From a virus: DNA of 64,000 nucleotides. Below are positions 14,578 through 58,128 of the stretch, in pieces. Under the pieces are notes generated by a model that searched no databases, had not been told where the DNA came from, and was given only the letters and a program-made list of their open reading frames with translations. The stretch spans positions 92,994 to 156,993 of IMG/VR virus record IMGVR_UViG_3300030438_000078. One strand, given 5' to 3'. Position numbers and translations under genes: made by a program. Position 1 is the stretch's first letter. Each line of letters begins with the position of its first letter.

Positions 14578-15294
14578 TCATAATAAATTTTGTTTAAGAA
14601 TGTTTAATACTTCTGATTTAGGAACATTGTATTTAATCCATATGATTTTTATATTGTTATTATCACAATATTCCTAAATTAACTAATCTCTTTTCTGCTA
14701 TTTTTCTAGAGAAAATGGAATTAATCTATTAGAACATTTAAAATAATCACATTCTTCATAATGCTGTTTTCCGTTATATTCTATATATACATCTCCTACT
14801 TTAAAATCAATAAAATATTTTTTATCATCAATTTTAAGGTAAAAGTTATGGATATATGAAATATTATTTTCCTTTAACCAATTTTCTATAAAAATTTCTC
14901 CTAAAGATTTAGGTTTACATAAAGGACATCCTGACTATCTTAAAAAATCTCCAGGTCTTATTTCAAAAAATCCATGAATAGGACATCCTATAGTTACTTT
15001 AGTATCATTATTTTTATATTCTACCTTGGAATAATCAAAATTTTTATTAGGAAATCTATCTTTACATTTTTGTATAAAAAGTTCATTATTTAATTTTCTA
15101 TTAGTTATTCCATTTTTAATACCTTTCCATGATCCATTTTTCAAACGACTTGCTGAAACTGTTACTTCTCCTAATACAGGATGTATTACTATTACAGAAC
15201 AACGCCATCCTGTATATACAGTTTTACTAAAGTCACAGCTAGGATATAATTTCTATACTCGTTCTAAAAATTCACTCTATGTTAATTTTCTCAT
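14578..15294 (-). CDS. endonuclease-like protein with six in-frame TAG codons (TAG-recoded gene, or pseudogene)
   Basis: Single frame of 239 codons from ATG 15294 to TGA 14578 whose only internal stops are six TAGs; the translation is protein-like throughout and contains 'FIDFKVGDVYIEYNGKQHY' (Vsr/DUF559-like endonuclease motif) and 'CPLCKP'. Confidence 0.5.
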
Positions 15295-35385: not shown

Positions 35386-35979
35386 CTATAAAACTCTTTC
35401 AGTAGACCATCTATAGCCTAATTTATCAGCTATTTCCAATACTTGGTTAGCTAATTTCTCAGTTGGGCACCAAGTATGAATATACTGTTTCAATTTCTTA
35501 TTCGCTTTTGGCAACATAGTAGATACTACTGGATGAACAGTCTTTGCTTTTAATCCACAAGTCTTTACAAGTTCTTTCAGCATTATGGAAAAAGCCAGCA
35601 CATTTTCATTCCAAGTAGGTTCCGCCCATTCTTGCAAAGTGAACATTGAATCTTTCGGTTTCTTTCACATCTTCATTCTTGATAATCATTTCAATTTGAT
35701 AAGCAAGTTCGTCTACTGAAACATTACCAAAGAAGCCAAATTTAGGAACATCACAGAATTTACAATGCATTGGACAGCCTTTCTGTGTAGATATAGTAGC
35801 AACCCATTTGTTGCGCAAATCTACTTTTGTATTAGCTACTCCATTAATTTCTTTGTCAATCCAAGAAAATTAGCTTTAATGTTATTTTCTTTTCCGTAGT
35901 CACCAACTGTGAGAAACTCAAGTTTGTTATTGGTGTCTACATAAATCTTACCCGTATGGGTTCTAACGATTTTAATCAT
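35386..35979 (-). pseudogene. radical-SAM-domain gene disrupted by at least two frameshifts
   Basis: Three consecutive ORF pieces in different frames (35819-35979, 35606-35818, 35386-35646); middle piece carries the radical-SAM Cx3Cx2C cluster 'GCPMHCKFCD'. Confidence 0.4.
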
Positions 35980-41231: not shown

Positions 41232-41486
41232 TCAGAGGATTTTTAAAAGTATCCCCACCGCTGTGGGGATTTTACAAATGTCCACCAAGAACAGACCTTC
41301 CTGTGCCACTATACTTTGAATTGTTTCACAACAACTACATAGTCTCTGGGCATACCCATTATGGTCTTGTAACAATTTAAATATAACATGACAACTTTTT
41401 TGTTTCACAACAATTTTATAAGATGGGTTCTCTATTCTGGAATCGAACCAGATCTTCCCACACTTGTGGTAGTGCCCATACACCAT
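41232..41486 (-). CDS. hypothetical Cys-containing protein
   Basis: 84-aa ORF. Confidence 0.35.
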   Translation of the reverse strand: MVYGHYHKCGKIWFDSRIENPSYKIVVKQKSCHVIFKLLQDHNGYAQRLCSCCETIQSIVAQEGLFLVDICKIPTAVGILLKIL

Positions 41487-41493
41487 TAGAGAA
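41428..41493 (-). ncRNA. truncated tRNA-like element without an anticodon loop
   Basis: Acceptor TTCTCTA/TAGAGAA, T-arm TCTGG-TTCGATT-CCAGA, short D-hairpin, and a CCAC-AAGT-GTGG tetraloop hairpin where the anticodon arm should be; ~66 nt. Confidence 0.3.
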
Positions 41494-43251: not shown

Positions 43252-43659
43252 ATGATTACAGACTTAGAAACATTGTTAAACGAAGACTAGTTTAGAGAAC
43301 TAGTAAAAGCTATCTATGAAAATAGAGAATATAATTACGAAGAAAATGGATTAAAAATTAATGCCAATTCTAACGATAATTCTCTACAACTATCAATAGC
43401 TTATGATGAAGATAAAAAAGAAAATAGTTTAGTTCAAAAAGAACTTGATAATTTTCAGAATTATTTAAAAGATATGGATGATGATTTATTTACAGAAGTA
43501 TGTGATGCTCTAGATAATGAAGAAATACAAAAAATTCAGAATTGTCTAAACTCTAATAAATTAGAAACAGTAAGAGCTGCTATAGTTAAGTTTAAGAGTG
43601 TTGCGAGAAAGATTATTACTGATAAAATTGTTTATCTTAATAACTTACTATATGCTTGA
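43252..43659 (+). CDS. hypothetical protein containing one in-frame TAG (codon 13)
   Basis: ATG 43252; TAG at 43288-43290; frame stays open and protein-like to TGA at 43657-43659 (136 codons); ORF track only reports the distal 61 aa. Confidence 0.45.
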
Positions 43660-43807: not shown

Positions 43808-43881
43808 TGGGGTATGGTCGTAATTGGTTAACGGGTCTGACTCTAAATCAGAAATTCTGGGTTCGAGTCCCAGTACCCCGA
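43808..43881 (+). tRNA. amber suppressor tRNA (anticodon CUA, reads UAG)
   Basis: Acceptor TGGGGTA/TACCCCG, D-loop TAATTGGTTAA, anticodon arm TCTGA-CTCTAAA-TCAGA with CTA at 43843-43845, variable AATT, T-arm CTGGG-TTCGAGT-CCCAG; 74 nt. Confidence 0.8.
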
Positions 43882-43900
43882 CAATTAAAACATTAATAAT

Positions 43901-44807: not shown

Positions 44808-44848
44808 AAATACCCAGCCCAGCTTAATTGCTAGGTTGGGTATTTTTA
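44808..44848. terminator. bidirectional intrinsic terminator between convergent genes
   Basis: AAATACCCAGCC-(14 nt loop)-GGTTGGGTATTT followed by TTTTT on the plus strand and A/T-rich on the other; sits between plus gene ending 44803 and minus gene ending 44911. Confidence 0.45.
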
Positions 44849-44910: not shown

Positions 44911-46464
44911 TTACAGAATATTCTTGCCAAAATAGACAGGAACAGTTTTATCATCCATTAGTAATCTTTTCTTTTGTTTTAAAGGGGTATATAACTTTTT
45001 AGTAATTCCACTAGGGGAGTACTCAAACTAATTATATTCAGAATTCAATAATGCATCTTTAAGCTCCTATGAAGTTACAGTTGTCTGATTTCCTTGATAA
45101 ATATCTTCATAATCGGGTCTTGTATCATAAAATCCCTTCTTATTTAAAGGTCTACTACTTACACCCATAGTATAGGGATTCATTCCAATTATTTCTGCTT
45201 GCTATTCTGGAAGTAACTATACCTTACCTCTAAATCCACTAGAAGTGTTACCAAAATTTAAATGACTTCTTCCCATTTGTGTAACATCTATTTCACCAGG
45301 AAAACCTCTATAATCAGTAGCCTTTCTAACCCCAAAAGTCTTTGTAGGAAATTCATAAAGTACTTTTATTCCGATAGGTTCTGACGTACCTAATCCAGAA
45401 AATTCTTCCCAAGGAGTAGTGTGGGATATAAATAGTTTCTCACCCTCTATATTAGTACTAGGTAATTTACTTGATCTTGCCATTCTATAATAATTATCCC
45501 CATTTCTAGTAGATAAAAAATTAGACCATTCAGAATTTCTAAAAGCCCGTGTAGCTTTATCTATATTCTTAGGAGAATTATCTAAATTTCTACTTAATAT
45601 TTTAGCTCTAGCCCATTTATTACCAGCTTTAGCTAATCCATATTCAGCTACTCTACCTAATCCTTTAAATACAGGGTTTAAAGCAACTCCTTCTACATAT
45701 AACTAACCTATAGGGTCTGTACCGCTCATACTTATATTAGTAGTAGAGGTTTGTTCTTTACCATTAGCATCTTTCCATCTTACTACTTCAGAATTTGGTT
45801 GCTAACTTCTAGCATTAGCAACCTGTAATCTATTATATGCTTGAGGGTCTTCTTTCTTCATCTATTCTACTACTTGAGAATATTGAGGACCTTTATATTC
45901 TAATTTACCCCAAGCTGTTTGTTTCTTAGGAATTAATATCCCACCCTTTTTAAACTCTTTATTTTTATTTCCTTGCTCTATATACTACTTTAAGAAATTT
46001 CTCTGATTCTCATTTATCGGTATATAAACAGTATTCATTCCTTTATGTAATCTTTTTGTAAGTTCTGGTCGTAGGTCTAATTTATATTTATGTTCTGCTG
46101 GGTAATAAATAGAATCTCCTTTTATCATTGGTATCCCATTTAATTCCTCTAATACAAAATCTTGAACATCTCCAGGAGTAGTAAACAAAAAAGAATTTAG
46201 TTTTTTATTAAAGGTCTTTTCTAAAGCGCATCTAGTTGCATCACTACAGTTATTAGTAACTAGATTATAATCTTTATGTTTTCCGCCTTTATCTACTGTG
46301 TAGGGTCTATATCTATCATCCTTTGACCCAGTTATAGTTAAACTACTATGTCCAGTAAGTGGATATCTACTAACAAAAGGATAATAAGTATTTAGAACTG
46401 CATATTTAGAAGATTCATCTAATAACTCGTTTCCTTCCTAATATTTTGGTATTAATTTACTCAT
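44911..46464 (-). CDS. TAG-recoded protein (517 codons) with papain-like thiol-peptidase-type 'NNC' motif (PPPDE/LRAT-like)
   Basis: One frame from ATG 46464 to TAA 44911 contains about 10 in-frame TAGs and no TAA/TGA; it fuses ORF-track pieces 45985..46188 and 45217..45483; 'HKDYNLVTNNCSDATRCALEKTF' resembles the Cys box of PPPDE/NlpC-P60-like peptidases. Confidence 0.5.
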
Positions 46465-46669
46465 ATGTATTTATCTTTATATATTTAAGCCAACTAAATG
46501 GTTTTCTATTATCTAAGTATTCTAAGTTATCGTCATTGTTATGTGCTTCTTCTTCTAAGGAAATTTCATGATAACAATTCTTTTGTTTATCTTTAATTCT
46601 GAATAATCTAATTAATAAATACTCTAATCCATACCATATATAAAATCCAATAAATAAAGTTTCTATCAT
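46457..46669 (-). CDS. small membrane protein
   Basis: 70 aa; N-terminal TM 'LFIGFYIWYGLEYLLIRLF'; ends TAA; overlaps next gene start by 8 nt. Confidence 0.4.
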   Translation of the reverse strand: MIETLFIGFYIWYGLEYLLIRLFRIKDKQKNCYHEISLEEEAHNNDDNLEYLDNRKPFSWLKYIKINTYE

Positions 46670-46794
46670 CTATTTAGTATGAATCTTTTCATGATTTATA
46701 TCTATATTTGATAAACTATCTTTAGTAAATAAGATTCCAAATAGATTTATTGCTTTGTATCCTTTAAATGGAATAAATTTATTTTTAATTATTA

Positions 46795-46986
46795 TCATAT
46801 TATATAATACCAATCAGTACGTTCTCTTACTCCTTTATCTTTTAACTATTGAGAATTTAGATGATAATCACCGTTTCTAAAATTCAACTCTTTATCTACA
46901 TAATTCCAGTAAAAATATCCATGCCATCCTGGAAGAAGCAAAGTCTTTCCAGTTACAGCATATAAAGTAGCTTGATTATAATTCAT
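46795..46986 (-). CDS. small aromatic-rich protein with one in-frame TAG
   Basis: ATG at 46986 overlaps the TGA of the holin-like gene (ATGA); TAG at 46846-46848; ends TGA 46795. Confidence 0.35.
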
Positions 46987-47258
46987 AGTATAATTATTAA
47001 TATACCTAATATTATTCCAATTAAATCTGCTATTATATCTTTCCAATCCCATCCAGTACCATTTGATCTGAATTTATCATATAATTCTTTTGATATAGAA
47101 GCAACTATTGCTAATGCTACTCCTACTTTCAAATTAAAAACTCCTACTATTAATACAATAGCAAAATTAATTATCACATGTTTTAATTTATCATTTCCTT
47201 TTATAAGAGAAATAATATTATTTATCCAATTTTTTATTGTTTCCATCCTTATTACCAA
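46983..47258 (-). CDS. holin-like membrane protein
   Basis: 91 aa with two or three TM helices ('FAIVLIVGVFNLKVGVALAIVASI', 'IIADLIGIILGILIIIL') and charged loop; located in a lysis-like cassette. Confidence 0.45.
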   Translation of the reverse strand: MVIRMETIKNWINNIISLIKGNDKLKHVIINFAIVLIVGVFNLKVGVALAIVASISKELYDKFRSNGTGWDWKDIIADLIGIILGILIIIL

Positions 47259-47469
47259 ATTTCCAAATTCCTGTTACACTATCTATACCTAATAGTCCCA
47301 TGCAACACCATAGAACTGTATCTATCATTAATGGAGCTTGTATAACTTCAACTGTACAATATACCAATACTAAAAGACATATTATCCAACCAGTTAATCC
47401 GCAAACTCTCTTAGAAGATACTCCTGATTGAGAAATTACTACTTCCTTCAAAAATTGTATAAATCTCAT
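47218..47469 (-). CDS. membrane protein (holin/spanin-like)
   Basis: 83 aa, two TM helices, basic C-terminus; ATG overlaps TGA of upstream gene (ATGA). Confidence 0.4.
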   Translation of the reverse strand: MRFIQFLKEVVISQSGVSSKRVCGLTGWIICLLVLVYCTVEVIQAPLMIDTVLWCCMGLLGIDSVTGIWKFGNKDGNNKKLDK

Positions 47470-48485
47470 CTCTTAAAATATTGATTTATAACATCAGAGT
47501 AATTATCCACCTACTAAAAAGCATCATTTAATCCTCCGTTAATATATATATTATACATATCCTATATGGATTTAGAACTATTTAATCTACTTTTAAATTT
47601 ATTAGGCATTTTGTAGTAAGCATATAACATTCTATCTTCTGAACCTGGATTATTCTTAAAGAAAGCATGAACTGAATTTCCATACTTTTCTATTAATAGT
47701 TTTTTAGCATCGTTCAATTTCATATTAATAATCTCAGCTGCATCATTCAAAGATAAATTATCTTTTCCCCATACTTTCATTTTATTATCAAACGGTTTTT
47801 TATAAGTTAATCCAGTAATATTTAATCTTTGTTTGACGTCGTCTAAATTATCCAATCCAAAGTTTCCTAGTTTTTTATAAGATGTATTTCCAGGATTTTT
47901 AGTGGGATTTCGGGCAATTACAACACTATCTGGATCGACTGTTAATTTAGAATTAAGCATATTAGTAGCATAGCCTTCGTTTAACAGTACATTTAATAAT
48001 CCCCTCTTATGGGCAACATTAGAGAGTACTCCATTTAACTATTTTCTGTTTTTATCTAAAAATGAATATTTCCAATTTTTATCTATACCATTTTTATCTG
48101 TACCCCATTTAGTATTTACAATTACTTTATAATTAGGAGAGGTAACTTCTCCACCATCTTCATGTTTTTTAATTAAACCATAAGTTCCTTTCTTTAATCT
48201 TTTAATTGTAATCCATCCATTATCTAATATTGACCTATGTCCATCTGGCTTATGAATCTTCGAACCTTCCTCATGTTTCCATTTAGCAGCATTTCTAGCA
48301 AAGTTAGCCCTCTTCTTTTGTAATGGAGTAGTCTTAGGATTTTTTAATACAGCTCTTGCATGCTCCTATACACTTCTTCCTGCCTTTTTAGCAGAAGCTG
48401 TAAACTTTCCTCTGTTCTTCTTTTTAATATGAATACCAGAACCTTTCTTATATATCTAGCATCCAATAAATTCTAAATTGTTCAT
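47466..48485 (-). CDS. TAG-recoded basic protein (340 codons), candidate lysis/virion protein
   Basis: ATG 48485 to TGA 47466 with in-frame TAGs at 48456, 48366, 48039, 47562, 47514 and 47511; extends ORF-track piece 47562..47960 in both directions; very K/R-rich N-terminal third. Confidence 0.45.
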
Positions 48486-48730
48486 AAATTAATTAATTTC
48501 GCATGAATCTTTCTGTGACAATTACTACATACACAAATACACTTATCTAATTCTATTTTAAATAATCTAGTTGGTAAGTATTTAACAGACTGAGATATAT
48601 TATATACTTTATCATGTAAATGATGAACCTCTAAACAACAATATGCTGTTTCTCCACAAATACAACATTTATCTTTTTTATCCTTTAGTAATAATTTATT
48701 ACCATTAATTACTTCTGAAGGCTGTTTCAT
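48482..48730 (-). CDS. HNH endonuclease
   Basis: 'CCICGETAYCCLEVHHLHDK...CSNCHRKIH' HNH zinc-finger motif; 82 aa; ATGA overlap with downstream gene. Confidence 0.6.
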   Translation of the reverse strand: MKQPSEVINGNKLLLKDKKDKCCICGETAYCCLEVHHLHDKVYNISQSVKYLPTRLFKIELDKCICVCSNCHRKIHAKLINL

Positions 48731-48867
48731 AAAACACAGAATTAATTATTAATTATTAATATATTATAATAAATAATGATTTGTATCTTACAAAGAATAT
48801 TAATATACTTGAAAAGTATAAAATAAATATAGATAAATGTATTAAATGATTTAATGAACTATGATTA

Positions 48868-51168: not shown

Positions 51169-52461
51169 ATGGCATTAAATTTAGACCCAGAATTTGTACA
51201 TTATGTTTAGGGTATTTATGGAAACGCTGATTTAGATGGTAAAGTAATTAAATAGTTATATTAGACATGGAAGAGTAATCCTTAGTTTATTATAAATGCT
51301 TATAATTAGAAAAATCAAGTTCAGCAAAATAAACCTTAGCTAGCTTCAATGGCTAATAATAATATTAGATAGATTAATAAGCCAGAAGTAGCACAGGATG
51401 ATTTAAGTGGAATTACTAATTTTGGAAACGCATTTAAAATAGCTAGTTAGAGAAATTTAAGTTAGTTTAAATGGAAGGGAACTAAAGCTAATCCTAGTGG
51501 ATTATTTGCAGTTGAATTTGCAACAAAAAAATAGTCTACATCTAAGCCTACTAAGCCTACTAAACCTTCTCCTACTTCAAATAATTCTAACTAGTCAAGT
51601 CCTTCTTCTACTCAAACATGGTCAAGTTTACTTGAAAAAGCTCCGACTCTTGATTTAATAGAATCAGTAAAAGGAAAATCATTTTGGGATGGAACCTTTT
51701 TTCCAGTAGATAAATCTTTAGTTAAAAAGGCTCCTTCTCCTGTAACTAATAGTTCCTCTACTTTGAAACAAGATGTTCCAAGTAGTCCATTGCCAAGAAA
51801 TAGAGAAGCCGAATCATAGGCAAGACAATCAGCTTTTGAAAGAATGACATACTAGAATTGGAGAAGTAATAGACCCTCTGAAAATAGTTATTTTAGAGCA
51901 GGTTATAATTCTATAACTCCATCTTTTTATTAGTAGGGAGGTACTATGTAGCAACAATAGTCTTCTCAAGAATAGGAATTACAAAAAGCTTTCTTAGCAT
52001 ATTTAATTTAGGATGCAGCATAGCAAGGTATTCAATTACAATCAGAACAAGATTTACAAGCATATGCTTAGCAACTTGGAGAAGAAGGTATAAAAGCTAA
52101 GTATCAAGAATTTATGCAGAAAATGCAAGGAGGAACAATGGCTAAACTTGGGACAAAGTTAGAATATATTAAAAAACTAAAAGGAGTATGTCCAGAAGGC
52201 TATGAAATGTCCTATTACAAGGTAGGAGGAAGAATCTGCAAAACTTGTTAGAAAATGCATAAAATGGAAGCTGCATAGAAAGGGAAGAAACTAAATGCAG
52301 TTCAATAGTTTAAGAAAGATATGAAAACTAAAGATGAAGCATCTAGAGATTCTATAGCTATCAATAAATGGCAGGATTAGGATACAATGGCTAAGAAAGG
52401 AAATAAAGGAAACTTTAAAAAAGGAACATGGGTTCCAGATAGAAAGAAATATAAAAAATGA
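51169..52461 (+). CDS. Gln(TAG)-rich hypothetical protein (431 codons)
   Basis: Continuous protein-like frame with more than 25 in-frame TAGs, ends TGA; Ser/Pro/Thr-rich linker and C-terminal Cys motif 'CPEGYEMSYYKVGGRICKTC'. Confidence 0.5.
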
Positions 52462-53057: not shown

Positions 53058-55208
53058 ATGGGAAGAAAGAAAAAAATACTACCTGAAGAATTATAGATTA
53101 TAGTAGATGAAGTAAGAAATAAATAGGAATAGGAAGATGCTCAAGAAGCTAGAGAACTAGTATAGAAGTTAAGACAGGAAAGGTCTAATGATAAAACATA
53201 TTGGGATGTAAAAAAAGAAGAAACAATAGAAGTATTTGACCCAACATTATCTTATGAGTTAACTGGATATAGACCTATAGATGAAACTCATGGATTAGAC
53301 TTTAATCCAGAATGGTTCACAGAAACTAGGGAGGTTTATAAGAAAACTGGAAAATATTGTCCGTATCTAAAAGATAGTAAGAGATATAATGAATTTTGGA
53401 AAGAGCAATATAGAAGATGTAAATACGGAATGACAGTTAATGGTTACACTATTACTGGAGATAATTACTTCTTTTTGAATTTCTATTAGTTACCGGCTAT
53501 TGATACTAACTAGGCTTCTGGTTCTGGAACTAGAGATGATTTTCCAATATTTTTCGCATCTCATTATATGTTCTTCCATTATTTACAAATGGCAAGAGTA
53601 CTTCATAAGCATGCAGCTTTGATGAAAGCTCGCTCGATAGGTTTTAGTGAAATAAATGCTTCATTATCAGCAAGAATGTATTCTGTGATTAGAAAAAGTA
53701 GAGTGATGATTACTTGTTATAATGATACCTTCTTAAAGGGCACATTTAATAAGTTTGATCATGCTTTAACTTTTTTAAATACATGCACTAATGGAGGATT
53801 CTTTAAAAGAAGAATTACAGATTAGGATCTAAAAAAGAAATCTGGAACTTAGATAAAAATAGATGGACAGTTTGAAGATACTGGATTTCAATCAGAAGTA
53901 CTAGGAATTAATGGAGCTAAACCATCTAATATTCGTGGTGACCGTGTTGATTTATTAATATTTGATGAAGCAGGTTCTTGGCCAGGTTTAACTACTGCAG
54001 TTGTACAAGGACAAGAATTATGTGAAGTATAGGGTGTTCCTAGAGGTACTATGTTATTTGGTGGAACTGGGGGCGATATGGGGGCACCTTTGGAAGGTCT
54101 TAAAAAGATATATTATAATCCTAGGTCATTTAAAATACTTCCATTTAGACATAATTGGACACAAGATGGTACTACTATAGAAAGCGGATTCTTTATACCT
54201 TACTTTTTACAATCTCTTAATCCAGAATTTATGGATAATAGAGGAGTTTGTAAAATTGGAGAATATAAAAAATTCTTACAAGAAGAACGCGACAATCTAT
54301 TAGCTGTTCCAGAAGAATATTTAAAGAAATGTGCTGAACGTTGCTGGAATGCAGAAGAAGCATTTAATCTTGAAGGCGTTAATAAATTTAATAAAATAAA
54401 CATAGCTAATTAGTTAGCTACTATAAGACTTCATAAACAAGGTCCAAGACCTGAAGTAGGAGTAATAGATTACTATTATAAAAATAGCCAACATACTCCA
54501 GAAAATATAGCAGGTTTTAAATGGATGCCTAATCCTAATGGTAAAGTAAAAATATTAGAACACCCAGTATGGTCAGATTTATATAAAGAATAGATAGAGA
54601 AATTAAGAAAGAAAGCCGAAGAAAATGATGAAGAATTTACTGTTCCTGTATATAAAGAAATGAAAGACTTGTATGTTGCAGGAATAGACGGTATTGATAT
54701 TGGTGCAAATTAGACTTCTAAAGAAACTAGAGATCCTTCAGATTTCTGCATTACTATTAAGAAGAGAGCTTTTGGACTTAATGATCCTCAATATGTAGCA
54801 ATATATAAAGATAGACCTGGAAATATTAGAGAAGCTTATAAAATTGCTATGTGCTTAGCTAGATATTTTAACTGTAAAATAAATATAGAAGCAACTCGTA
54901 TGAGTATGGTTACTTGGGCTAGAGAAAATAAATGTTTACAATACTTTATGAAACGTCCAAGAGCTACACTAACAGATATTAAAAATGGTACTACTAAGTA
55001 GTACGGAACTCCTGCAACTAAAACTATTATTGAACAGCATACAGATTTAACAGCTGACTTTGTTGAAGATTACTGCCATACTATATGGTTTGAAGAAATG
55101 CTTGATTAGCTTACTGGTTATAATGATGAAAATAAAGGTAAGTTCGATATTATAGCATCAATGGGTATCTTAGTTATGCCCCTATATATAGTAATATATA
55201 TAAGATAA
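53058..55208 (+). CDS. terL: terminase large subunit
   Basis: 717 codons with about 14 in-frame TAGs; ATPase Walker B 'RVDLLIFDEAGSWP' followed by a nuclease-domain region 'LYVAGIDGIDIGAN'; size and order (immediately before the portal-like gene) fit TerL. Confidence 0.7.
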
Positions 55209-55714: not shown

Positions 55715-55967
55715 ATTATATGAAATGGAATATATAGGAGGTTTAGAAATAACTGACCTAGATCCAGTAGGTTATAAAATTTCTTTTAATTTTGATAAAT
55801 CTGAAATGCCTTTAGTTATTATAGCAGATTTACCAGATGAAGAATTTTTACCTTTTATAAAAGAAGAATTAAGAAGTAGAAAACTTCATAGAGTTAAATA
55901 TTTTGGAGCTACTAAACTTCCTCCAGAACCTATAACAGTTTGTAATGAAAGAAAAAGAACTTATTGA
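55665..55967 (+). CDS. hypothetical protein
   Basis: 100-aa ORF overlapping both neighbours. Confidence 0.35.
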   Translation: MMTHTELKQAILDYIRELYEMEYIGGLEITDLDPVGYKISFNFDKSEMPLVIIADLPDEEFLPFIKEELRSRKLHRVKYFGATKLPPEPITVCNERKRTY

Positions 55968-58128
55968 CAAAACTAATGCTGCTATTTCTGAGTTGGTATA
56001 TGACAAGTATGAGTTACAAAAAGCTTATAATTATTACAATGGTAAAAGAGACCCAGAATAGTATCGTTACTTAGAAGAAAATTTTGGAATAGGAAGTCCT
56101 ACATCAGTTGAGTTTACACCTCTATTAAAAAAGCATGTAGATGCTTTAGTTGGAGAATATTTAGGAACTCCTATACTTCCAAAAATTTCTTGTAAAGACT
56201 CTGAGACTATATCTAGTATTACTAGAGAAAAATAGTTAAAAATAATTGAAGGGATAGTTAAATTTTTAAAAGATCATTTAAATAATTCTATTCTCAGATT
56301 TATAGATGGAAAAGATATAACAGATAAAGCTATTAAAGAATAGCTAGACAAATTAATTCAAGACATTGACCAATCATTTATTTCTCAATATGAAATTGCT
56401 GCACAGCACGTTGTGTATTACATAATGCAATCTAGAGAAACAGATTTAATTACTAAACTAAGATAGTTATTAACAGATTTACTTATTACTGGATATACTT
56501 TCTTTAGAGTTAAACAATCTTTAAGTGAAAATAATATTGAAATAGAAGTACTAAATCCATTAAATACTTTTATAGATAGAAATCCAGATTCTCCATATGT
56601 TAGAAATTCTTATAGAGCGGTTATTAGACAATGGTTAACTAAGAGTTAGATATTGGCTAAGTATGGCAAGGAACTATCTAAAGAAGATTTAAAACAATTA
56701 AAAGATGATTGGTATGATAGTGACGGTGCTGCTGTTTATAGAAGAGAGTTCACAGCTTCTAATACATGTACAGTAGTAAATGATGATTGGAATAATGACA
56801 CAATACCTGGTTATCCAGATAATGAATATAGTACAAAACGATTCTAGCTTATCCCGGTGTATGAAGTAGAATGGATTGAAACAGATGATAACTTTATAAT
56901 GTAGAGATATACTACTATAAGAATAGGAGAAAATATTTATATACTTAGAGGTCTAGATAAAAATGTTATTAGGTCAAAAGATAATCCTAGCTTCTGTGGA
57001 CTTTCAGTAAATGGAGTATATTTTTTAAATAGATCTAAATAGCCTTATTCTCTAATATTAAAATGTGCTCATTTGTAGGATAGATATGACTTATTAAACT
57101 ATTATAGAGACTCTTTAGTAGCTAATAGTGGTTCTGCTGGTGTTATTATGGATATGTCCCTATTGCCTAAGAACTTAGGAGTAAAATGGCCTGAAAGAGT
57201 AGAAAAATGGTTAGCATATAAGAAAGCAGGTATAATGTGGGTAGATAGTTCTCAAGAGGGCAGAAATGATAATGGTAATGCTCCATTAAATACTATCTTT
57301 AACGGATTTGATGATACTTTAAAAGCTCAAGCTATTCAAGCAATAGAGTTAGCAATCTAGGGAGTAGAACAAACTACCTCTTCAATTACTGGAGTATTTA
57401 GAGAACGTCTTAATGGTATAGAACAAAGAGATGCCGTAACTAATATTAAATAGGGAGTAGCTAACTCGTATATTGTTACTAAACCATATTTCCAACAAAT
57501 GGATTTAATAACCTGTGAAATCTTACTAGATAGTTTAAATCAAGCTAAAATAACTTATAAGAAAAAAGGTTTAACTGGAACTATTATTTTGGGAGATAAA
57601 TATTAGTAGATATTTACTGCACTTCCAGAGCATTTTACTTTAACTGATTATGATATTCATGTAATTTCTAGTACACAAGTAATGGAAGATATGTAGACTA
57701 TAAAATCTATAATTCCAGAATTTGTAAAAAGTAATTAGATATCTCCAGATATTATATTAGAAGCTCTAACTTCTAAAAGTATGACTGATTTAAAATATAA
57801 AGTTAAAAAAGCTATGTAGGCTCAGAAAGAAGAGAATAATTAGTTATAGCAGCTATAGCAAAAACTAGAAGAAACTACATAGCAAGCTCAATAGTTATAG
57901 TAGGAATTATAGAAAGCATAGTAGAAGATACAGTAGCTTGATGAAACCAAACTTAACTTAGAATAGCATAAGATTCAGCTAGAATATTAGGTTAATTGGT
58001 TTAAAGCTCAAACTGATAGGTCTTATAGAGATAGATAGATGGATATAGAAGAAAAAAGAACTGAAGTAGAATTAGCTCAGTTAAAAGATGGGAATCCATA
58101 TAATGATAAAATTAGACAATTAATCTAA
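55945..58128 (+). CDS. portal-like protein (728 codons) with TAG-encoded Gln-rich C-terminal tail
   Basis: Large gene directly after terL; dozens of in-frame TAGs; C-terminal 40 codons contain about 13 TAGs ('QAQKEENNQLQQLQQKLEETTQQAQQLQQELQKAQQKIQQL'); portal assignment rests on size and synteny only. Confidence 0.5.

Follow-up and report, generated by a model that had tools for sequence, protein, structure and literature searches.

The DNA analysed here is a stretch of 64,000 nucleotides (nt) from the IMG/VR virus record IMGVR_UViG_3300030438_000078 (positions 92,994 to 156,993 of that record), which is referred to as the window and has a GC content of 29.7%. It contains an operon of seven chained minus-strand genes, gG-gF-gE-gD-gC-gB-gA, extending from 48730 to 44911, and all six junctions are overlapping (gG/gF 4, gF/gE 4, gE/gD 29, gD/gC 4, gC/gB 4, and gB/gA 8 nt). 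The original prediction, made from the letters of this DNA alone, had proposed a single late lysis operon in which two TAG-recoded genes, gA and gF, flank two small holin-like proteins and are chained by ATGA overlaps. A single late operon is indeed supported by the overlaps and by the TAG usage, with gB, gC, and gG to be added to it, while the ATGA overlap is present at four of the six junctions but not at gB/gA and gE/gD. As predicted, gA (44911-46464, minus strand) reads as 517 sense codons plus TAA with TAG as its sole interruption and no internal TAA or TGA, although it carries nine TAGs (codons 9, 160, 201, 221, 254, 416, 421, 466, and 479) rather than about ten. Likewise, gF (47466-48485, minus strand) is interrupted only by TAG, and the six TAGs claimed for it were found (codons 10, 40, 149, 308, 324, and 325; no internal TAA or TGA); it comprises 339 sense codons plus TGA. 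The standard-code list of open reading frames (ORFs) splits both genes exactly at the TAGs, as had been described. The other two frames hold 29-58 (gA) and 21-47 (gF) TAA and TGA codons, which places the openness of both frames far beyond chance. Altogether 17 TAGs are distributed over the operon, with six in gF, one each in gC and gB, nine in gA, and none in gG, gE, and gD.

The TAGs of the operon fit into a pattern that extends over the whole window. In-frame TAG is essentially nil in the long minus-strand block from 96 to ~43000, and it is abundant in the plus-strand block from 51169 onward, which holds the large terminase (53058-55208) and portal (55945-58128) genes; terminase, portal, and others have 14-30 in-frame TAGs each, compared with 0 in the early block. 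The share of TAG among glutamine codons amounts to 67% in gF and 38% in gA, and to 22-77% in terminase, portal, and other late genes, whereas the flanking genes for an exonuclease and a GroES-like protein, which are not late, have 0%. Judged from this usage, the operon would be expressed late, together with the structural genes. Ten tRNA genes were detected by ARAGORN, one of which (43808-43882, plus strand) has the anticodon CTA and is a Gln-like suppressor that reads TAG: its acceptor stem and D-arm are Gln-like, and features of its D-arm and anticodon stem are common to phage tRNA-Gln(TTG). The UGGGGUA start of its acceptor stem is a feature of bacterial tRNA-Gln. The gene, which is convergent to the recoded operon, lies ~1 kb past the operon's 3' end, and one in-frame TAG also occurs within an ORF just upstream of the gene (43252-43659, plus strand). 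At 41424-41493 (minus strand), ARAGORN additionally reported an irregular tRNA-like gene with the two-base anticodon call 'ag'. Codon-level alignment with three relatives revealed 20 shared TAG positions and 16 codon pairs with TAG in only one partner, where CAA or CAG stands opposite in 6 of the 16. The TAG-encoded Q40 of gF falls within a conserved 'SVQEHA' motif. We conclude from these observations that TAG is translated in this phage, most likely as glutamine.

That standard-code calling returns only fragments might be taken to mean that the interrupted frames are decaying pseudogenes, or that the fragments are independently conserved short genes, as the original prediction itself had considered. 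The chance of this is virtually nil, and we exclude both variants: the 517 and 339 codons are free of TAA and TGA in a genome of 30% GC, the TAG positions are kept or swapped for CAA or CAG in relatives, similarity spans every TAG in dozens of homologues, intact equivalents exist in standard-code relatives, and a suppressor tRNA is present. Gene calling with genetic code 15 moreover gives full-length relatives among public proteins (P0001, P0121, and P0122). No TAG at all occurs in 45 of the 58 homologous large hydrolase genes from IMG/VR, therefore the gene cassette described below exists in standard-code relatives too, and because so many relatives encode it without TAG, its recoding is lineage-specific and recent relative to the cassette itself. 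One such locus (L012, MT835470.1 107500-117447) encodes the cassette without any in-frame TAG. That late and lysis genes are gated by TAG recoding is, as a general idea, not new, as recoded (code 15) late and lysis genes in crAss-like phages have already been published (Borges et al., bioRxiv 10.1101/2021.08.26.457843; review PMC10136315) and code-15 recoding in these phages was validated by proteomics (PMC9523058). The published cases resemble the window in that TAG is restricted to late genes, a suppressor tRNA is encoded, the replication genes are standard, and a muralytic gene is recoded. However, the recoded lysis genes of Borges et al. encode a lysozyme-type amidase and a spanin within the structural block of ~105-kb crAss-like phages, while in the window a lytic-transglycosylase-fold protein and a mosaic protein are recoded, and their operon is a separate, divergently oriented one in a distant lineage of ~190-kb phages.

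Of the two recoded proteins it is gF, not gA, that emerges as the muralytic candidate of the operon, on the basis of its predicted fold. Its N-module (codons 1-112; 48150-48485, minus strand; two TAGs) consists of a three-helix basic motif and a disordered linker ending in '...KKHEDGG', and its C-domain (codons 113-339 plus stop; 47466-48149, minus strand; four TAGs) is predicted by structure modelling to adopt a lysozyme-like/lytic-transglycosylase fold. Resemblance to a peptidoglycan hydrolase or peptidase, the absence of which from both recoded proteins had been named as a reason to abandon the lysis reading, is thus provided by this modelled fold. The C-domain belongs to a conserved family that also occurs as stand-alone proteins of 230-250 amino acids (aa), and E170 (47976-47978), embedded in 'LLNEGY', is invariant in 13 homologues. 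No Pfam match at E < 1, including SLT (PF01464), and no PHROG match was obtained for residues 113-339, nor did a profile of the domain find anything among PDB sequences. Compared with family-1 lytic transglycosylases and other lysozyme-fold enzymes (Escherichia coli MltE, Slt70, and MltC; phiKZ gp144; phi6 P5; goose-type lysozyme), gF shares only 7-12% identity and differs from them in matching neither the Pfam SLT family nor any PDB sequence; the catalytic equivalence of E170 is putative. A peptidoglycan-directed role is nonetheless suggested for gF because in relatives its C-domain is replaced, behind a gF-type N-module, by YkuD, glucosaminidase, phage lysozyme, or tail lysozyme domains that Pfam recognises.

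The N-module of gF points in another direction. Residues 10-70 match residues 368-424 of cargo protein 1 (gp45) of ΦcrAss001 (PDB 7qog_M, E 1.8e-4). In the virion structure, gp45 binds the portal through residues 425-552 and the tail barrel through residues 214-245 (PMC10172136), and since the match at 368-424 precedes the former, the gF-type motif sits just N-terminal of the portal-bound domain. Among classified Crassvirales, the motif was found in a gp45 orthologue (cr108_1), in a small portal-adjacent ORF (cr50_1 and cr118_1), and at the N-terminus of a 576-aa lysozyme (cr127_1); in relatives of the window phage the N-module also occurs as a stand-alone ORF of 100-110 aa.

Immediately downstream of gF lie the genes of two small membrane proteins, each with at least two hydrophobic segments by hydropathy. 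gE (47218-47469, minus strand; 83 aa) is ATGA-coupled to gF and has two transmembrane segments (~23-45 and 46-66) followed by the charged C-tail 'KFGNKDGNNKKLDK', which are holin-like features. gD (46983-47246, minus strand; 87 aa) is hydrophobic at ~27-56 and 73-87, so that its end lies inside a hydrophobic stretch and the charged tail of holins is seen in gE only. The pair of small multi-transmembrane proteins had been foreseen, and hydropathy bears it out, but neither protein matches a holin or spanin family in Pfam or PHROG; moreover, the first of them, placed at 46983-47258, does exist but starts at ATG 47246 rather than TTG 47258, as judged from relatives. For gD, weak matches to VanZ/DUF2279 (E ~1e-3) and phrog_26616 (1e-7) were obtained, and blastn and tblastn searches found no match in the annotated phage collection. 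gE has 228 homologues, all of them unnamed; one of them (P0478) is recorded at NCBI as a hypothetical protein of a Bacteroides caccae assembly, which hints at the host genus. A role of gE as a lipoprotein or spanin was rejected, as it lacks a lipobox.

The order of these genes brings up pure lysis from within, where gF would act as endolysin, gE as holin, and gD as antiholin or other lysis accessory, and TAG would block premature lysis; gA, gB, and gC would then be co-transcribed late genes with other roles, and the gF N-module would be a regulatory or targeting appendage. The modelled lytic-transglycosylase fold of gF, its ATGA coupling to the charged-tail protein gE with a second membrane protein behind it, and the separation of the operon from the virion gene block all speak for this proposal, as does the published precedent that lysozyme and spanin genes are preferentially TAG-recoded in crAss-like phages. 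A BLAST search with the collected hydrolase domains found no other hydrolase in the window, which is a weak argument given that the window covers a third of the genome and given the sensitivity of BLAST. The failure of gE and gD to match any known holin or spanin family weighs on the other side, together with several properties of related loci given below, and we regard lysis alone as possible but rather doubtful.

The remaining genes of the operon are small. gB (46457-46798, minus strand; one TAG) encodes a zincin-like protein of 113 aa with an HEKIH motif and a hydrophobic helix; it is a homologue of crAssphage gp56 that matches phrog_15610 'protease' (E 1.7e-39) and, by blastn, the 'putative zincin superfamily protease' KP06_gp56 in many Crassvirales. 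gC (46795-46986, minus strand; 63 aa) is rich in Trp and Tyr and matches no Pfam or PHROG family; it is conserved in relatives, with 76-94% identity in the loci L006 and L010, and its single TAG stands at the identical codon. The first gene, gG (48482-48730, minus strand; 82 aa), encodes an HNH endonuclease (phrog_2255, E 6e-14). It is missing from the closest relative, L006, and present in L010, L013, and, in a scattered manner, many IMG/VR cassettes; gG is probably a mobile homing endonuclease that may contribute to the exchange of cassettes.

The composition of the operon was compared across 80 IMG/VR loci with a gE homologue (adjacency was counted in 78, and the large hydrolases number 58). 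A recurring order became apparent, namely a protein of the gF N-module type, an optional HNH gene, a hydrolase of 450-1345 aa, gB, gE, gD, and sometimes gC. gB is present in most related cassettes, and gD follows gE in most of them. The hydrolases are of the glucosaminidase, SLT, or lysozyme type, and the 58 are 400-1345 aa long with the catalytic domain in mid-protein; L012 and L013 carry a 981-aa glucosaminidase protein or a 220-aa SLT protein. L006, the flanks of which are 90-98% identical to the window, retains the gF N-module as a 110-aa ORF, gC, gB, and residues 177-517 of gA; gG, gE, gD, the hydrolase domain of gF, and the N-domain of gA are all missing from it. Three further mosaic genes are found in L010, and L011 combines a tail lysozyme with a stand-alone gF-type hydrolase. 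The module borders fall at aromatic-x-x-Gly-Gly motifs ('EFKKGG' in gA and 'KHEDGG' in gF), which are also found throughout gp45; in the large hydrolases, [FYWLIMA]xxGG was observed 240 times, against 101 +/- 10 times in shuffles, a 2.4-fold enrichment. The constant parts of the cassette are thus a protein with the cargo motif, a peptidoglycan hydrolase, a small zincin of the membrane, and a pair of small proteins with two transmembrane segments each. To judge from these sequences, the operon represents a conserved envelope-breaching/effector cassette of this lineage, the enzyme modules of which appear to be swapped at Gly-Gly linkers. We are highly confident of the descriptive core, that is, of a recoded late operon, a lysozyme-fold enzyme in gF as modelled, and a modular, conserved cassette.

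The survey bears on the function of gE in more than one way. In 48 of 78 related loci, gE directly adjoins a gene for a peptidoglycan hydrolase, and it does so irrespective of the type of hydrolase, which again favours lysis. On the other hand, most cassette hydrolases, at 400-1345 aa, are multi-domain proteins with a leader, a hydrophobic Gly/Ala stretch, and Gly-Gly linkers like cargo protein 1, an architecture atypical for the endolysins of Gram-negative hosts; the cargo-protein motif heads every cassette surveyed; domains directed at the cytoplasm (ART-PolyVal and HD) occur on a shared leader, where they make no sense at lysis; and the closest relative lacks the hydrolase, gE, and gD altogether. 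A different role for the membrane proteins would be superinfection exclusion or effector immunity, with gE and gD shielding the infected cell, much as T4 Imm and Sp do, when related phages bring in their hydrolases or ejection proteins. T4 Imm is comparable in size and topology to gE with its 83 aa and two transmembrane segments, and the tight linkage to polymorphic hydrolase and effector genes resembles toxin-immunity loci. Yet across the 80 loci gE keeps 52-74% identity to its counterpart in the window while the hydrolase type changes, the opposite of what is expected from co-varying immunity proteins, and exclusion genes are usually early, whereas gE and gD are coupled to TAG-gated late genes; we thus deem immunity very improbable.

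The 517-aa protein gA turned out to be a mosaic of three modules, as delimited by BLAST mapping of 120 homologues. The N-domain (codons 1-176; 45937-46464, minus strand; two TAGs) is PPPDE-like and ends in 'EFKKGG'; the M-module (codons 177-297; 45574-45936, minus strand; three TAGs) is a 'LIPKKQTAWGKLEY...' leader with a Gly-rich hydrophobic stretch; and the C-domain (codons 298-517 plus stop; 44911-45573, minus strand; four TAGs) is conserved and enzyme-like. The 'NNC' Cys box pointed out in the original prediction is real: C73 (46246-46248), in YNLVTNNCSDATR, is invariant family-wide together with H39 (46348-46350). H39, C73, and FTTPGDV.DF are invariant in 17 aligned members, and among 44 distant representatives the Cys is invariant and the His nearly so (>=90%); conservation was taken from alignments of fragments, as full-length MAFFT alignments of the mosaic proteins misalign the N-domain. 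The score of gA against PF05903 (PPPDE) reaches 12.6-14.7 bits, below the gathering cut-off of 29.2. Similar sub-threshold matches were obtained for 16 of the 17 members (best E 1.6e-4) and for the distant representatives (best E 2.6e-6; P0244, at 24.5 bits, is still below the cut-off), and none of the Pfam matches was to NlpC/P60. With PPPDE/Peptidase_C97, the DeSI-type permuted papain-fold isopeptidases, the domain shares the His-then-Cys order, an 'NxC' box, and the weak profile matches around the Cys box, but its score is below the cut-off, it is shorter (a conserved core of ~95 aa), and it appears to form a closed phage family. A search of 1.84 billion representatives with the N-domain profile returned a phage-specific family of 157 members without reaching bona fide PPPDE proteins. 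Domains fused to it in other family members include tail lysozyme (5 of 44 distant representatives), phage lysozyme (2 of 44), and crAss_CARG1 (E 1.5e-36), and in one protein (P0086) the gA N-domain stands together with the gF N-motif and the beginning of CARG1.

Many proteins whose C-termini are unrelated have the M-module as their N-terminus (residues 3-124), among them one with HD and ART-PolyVal domains (P0062) and a 518-aa protein of L010 with an HExxH domain. The C-domain is highly conserved, with invariant R327, S347-H-T349, and E371, as well as E353/E354 and E453. In the structure model, which is that of the 96%-identical P0001, corresponding to gA 175-517 (predicted local distance difference test, pLDDT, 70-90 in the C-domain), weak ADP-ribosyltransferase-like fold matches were obtained, such that the C-domain is possibly an ADP-ribosyltransferase-like enzyme; a clear [QE]xE motif is missing, and the R-S-E triad is assigned by secondary-structure order only. 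In other phages, gA-type C-domains follow lysozyme or glucosaminidase domains (P0058 and P0060). Other searches were negative: gA has no PHROG match and only the sub-threshold PPPDE match in Pfam; phmmer and profile searches of gA, its N-domain, and the M and C modules against PDB sequences gave nothing meaningful; M and C together have no match in BFVD by Foldseek and no relationship to gp45 or gp46 by hhalign. In the annotated phage collection, the matches found by blastn and tblastn were limited to the zincin, the 45-aa motif, and a single match of 100 aa to the N-domain.

Under the original prediction, gA was to be an endolysin of an unusual papain-like type (PPPDE/NlpC-P60) that cleaves the peptide stems of peptidoglycan. 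The invariant His39 and Cys73 in permuted order, the repeated weak PF05903 matches, the operon shared with a muralytic enzyme, and the fusion of the N-domain to lysozyme domains elsewhere, as is often seen for NlpC/P60 endopeptidase domains, would agree with this. However, all Pfam matches fall below the gathering score and none is to NlpC/P60, neither a signal peptide nor a cell-wall-binding domain was detected, and the PPPDE-like part (~19-175) lies within an N-domain that makes up a third of gA and that the closest relative lacks in its otherwise 98%-identical gene; the remainder consists of a leader common to non-lytic effectors and a domain without similarity to hydrolases. We therefore give this endolysin little credence. 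Because the modules of gA occur in crassvirus proteins of the cargo and polyvalent types, gA looks, from its sequence, less like a lysin than like an effector that is delivered or a protein with a role in processing. With regard to processing, we surmise, as an unlikely but consequential idea, that the PPPDE-like domain of gA and its cargo-type relatives might be a self-processing isopeptidase-type protease that cuts at aromatic-x-x-Gly-Gly linkers. A self-cut after G174-G175, for example, would free a fragment starting with 'ILIPKKQTAWG...', and stand-alone relatives start with 'M-x-KLIPKKQTAWG...'. If true, crassvirus cargo would consist of Gly-Gly-punctuated polyproteins whose modules are shuffled through recombination at the linkers and released by an enzyme of the DeSI/ubiquitin-like-protease type, a processing logic not described for phage ejection proteins.

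Taken together, we favour, with a probability of roughly 45%, a reading in which gA and gF are delivered as virion cargo at entry and gE and gD are general membrane partners, and consider it somewhat more likely than a pure lysis cassette. Timing, packaging, action at entry or at exit, and every enzymatic activity are inferred from the genes. With its 17 TAGs, the operon would remain untranslatable until the phage tRNA(CUA) is active, and because all of its genes are translationally coupled, the TAGs in gF would presumably also restrain the TAG-free gE and gD. gF and gA would then be made late, be packaged in virions by way of their cargo-type modules, and exert their action on the host infected next, where gF would open the murein at entry, by analogy with the transglycosylase domain of T7 gp16, and gA would be a delivered, possibly self-processing effector; gE and gD would be a holin-like pair or a channel component that partners whichever hydrolase is present. 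Besides the cargo-protein motif at the head of the cassettes, the place of this motif in gp45 orthologues or beside the portal gene in classified Crassvirales, the fusion of the gA N-domain with CARG1, and the very large, leader-bearing form of most cassette hydrolases, the M leader supports this, since in relatives it bears HD and ART-PolyVal or HExxH domains, which suggests a polyvalent-type protein, and injected polyvalent proteins with such a mosaic architecture have been reported (PMC5512222; Iyer et al., 2017).

Several points weigh against delivery at entry. The packaging of gA and gF in virions is itself read from their modules; a Pfam scan found the CARG1 portal-binding domain (PF25725) in neither protein, and beyond the 60-aa motif neither shows similarity to gp45 or gp46. 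The operon lies outside the structural gene block, on the opposite strand, and the order of a hydrolase and then two small proteins with two transmembrane segments, one of which ends in a charged C-tail, corresponds to the classic layout of endolysin and holin. That gE is kept whatever the hydrolase type fits a non-specific holin, and gF, at 339 aa, has the size of an ordinary endolysin. The PPPDE assignment of gA likewise stays sub-threshold in Pfam. Finally, the closest relative lacks the hydrolase domain, gE, and gD, so that under both models all three must be regarded as dispensable or redundant.

Comparison with known systems helps to place the cassette. ΦcrAss001 gp45 (C1; PF25725 crAss_CARG1; PDB 7qog) has aromatic-x-x-Gly-Gly linkers and a Gly/Ala-rich hydrophobic leader stretch like the modules in the window, and in other phages the gA N-domain is found in one polypeptide with CARG1. 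In contrast to gp45, gA and gF lack CARG1 and are not encoded beside the muzzle or virion RNA polymerase genes, while gp45, unlike gF, has no recognisable hydrolase domain. The polyvalent proteins (PMC5512222), T4 Alt, and T7 gp16 are late mosaics that combine peptidase, lysozyme/transglycosylase, and ADP-ribosyltransferase-type domains, as the products of the operon would do, likewise with an associated zincin and with packaging and injection proposed. Unlike in polyvalent proteins, the modules in the window are distributed among several small genes, a PPPDE-like peptidase takes the place of the typical MPTase, and the zincin gB is a separate, membrane-associated protein of 113 aa.

Outside the genes, the operon is preceded by an AT-rich divergent intergenic region (48731-48867), presumed to hold its promoter; a sigma-70-type scan found no more promoter-like sites there than in shuffled sequence, with a tool that does not cover Bacteroidota or phage RNA polymerase promoters. 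Between the end of the operon and the convergent plus-strand gene, a GC-rich hairpin (44817-44841), reported as a terminator-like site in a scan, is likely a bidirectional terminator. As to the source of the window, its large terminase protein is ~28% identical to those of classified Crassvirales and 44-46% identical to those of two unannotated gut phage records, and relatives are found on contigs of 180-190 kb. Because of the TAG pattern, the tRNA(CTA), the zincin matches, the terminase divergence, and the size of the relatives, we conclude that the source is a large (~185-190 kb), distant crAss-like phage with TAG as a sense codon in its late genes. Within the otherwise TAG-free early block, the ORFs 14578-15294 and 35686-35979 (both minus strand) have six and three in-frame TAGs, and could be spurious frames or else late-gated genes among early ones (e.g., homing endonucleases). 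The late block opens with a gene (51169-52461, plus strand; 430 aa, 25 TAGs) for a very Gln-rich protein without a family match, the 'YQQGGT' and 'MQGGTMAKLGTKLEY' motifs of which resemble the Gly-Gly linkers and the 'TAWGKLEY' leader of gA. The terminase ORF (plus strand) ends in an odd hydrophobic tail, 'ASMGILVMPLYIVIYIR', and is followed by a gap of ~450 nt before the next ORF (55665), which may reflect an intron, an intein, or a mis-called end.

A limited literature search yielded no description of this cassette, of the gF transglycosylase-fold family, or of the gE family, and a link between a PPPDE-like domain and crassvirus cargo proteins was not found described in it either. Stop-codon recoding hides genes from standard callers, and the envelope-breaching equipment of this ~190-kb crAss-like lineage is unannotated; all homologues that we found are labelled 'hypothetical'. 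The analysis offers as leads a profile-invisible family with a predicted lytic-transglycosylase fold, a conserved partner family with two transmembrane segments, and a cargo-linked PPPDE-like family, and the modular cassette provides a concrete system for how crAss-like phages cross or destroy the Bacteroides envelope.

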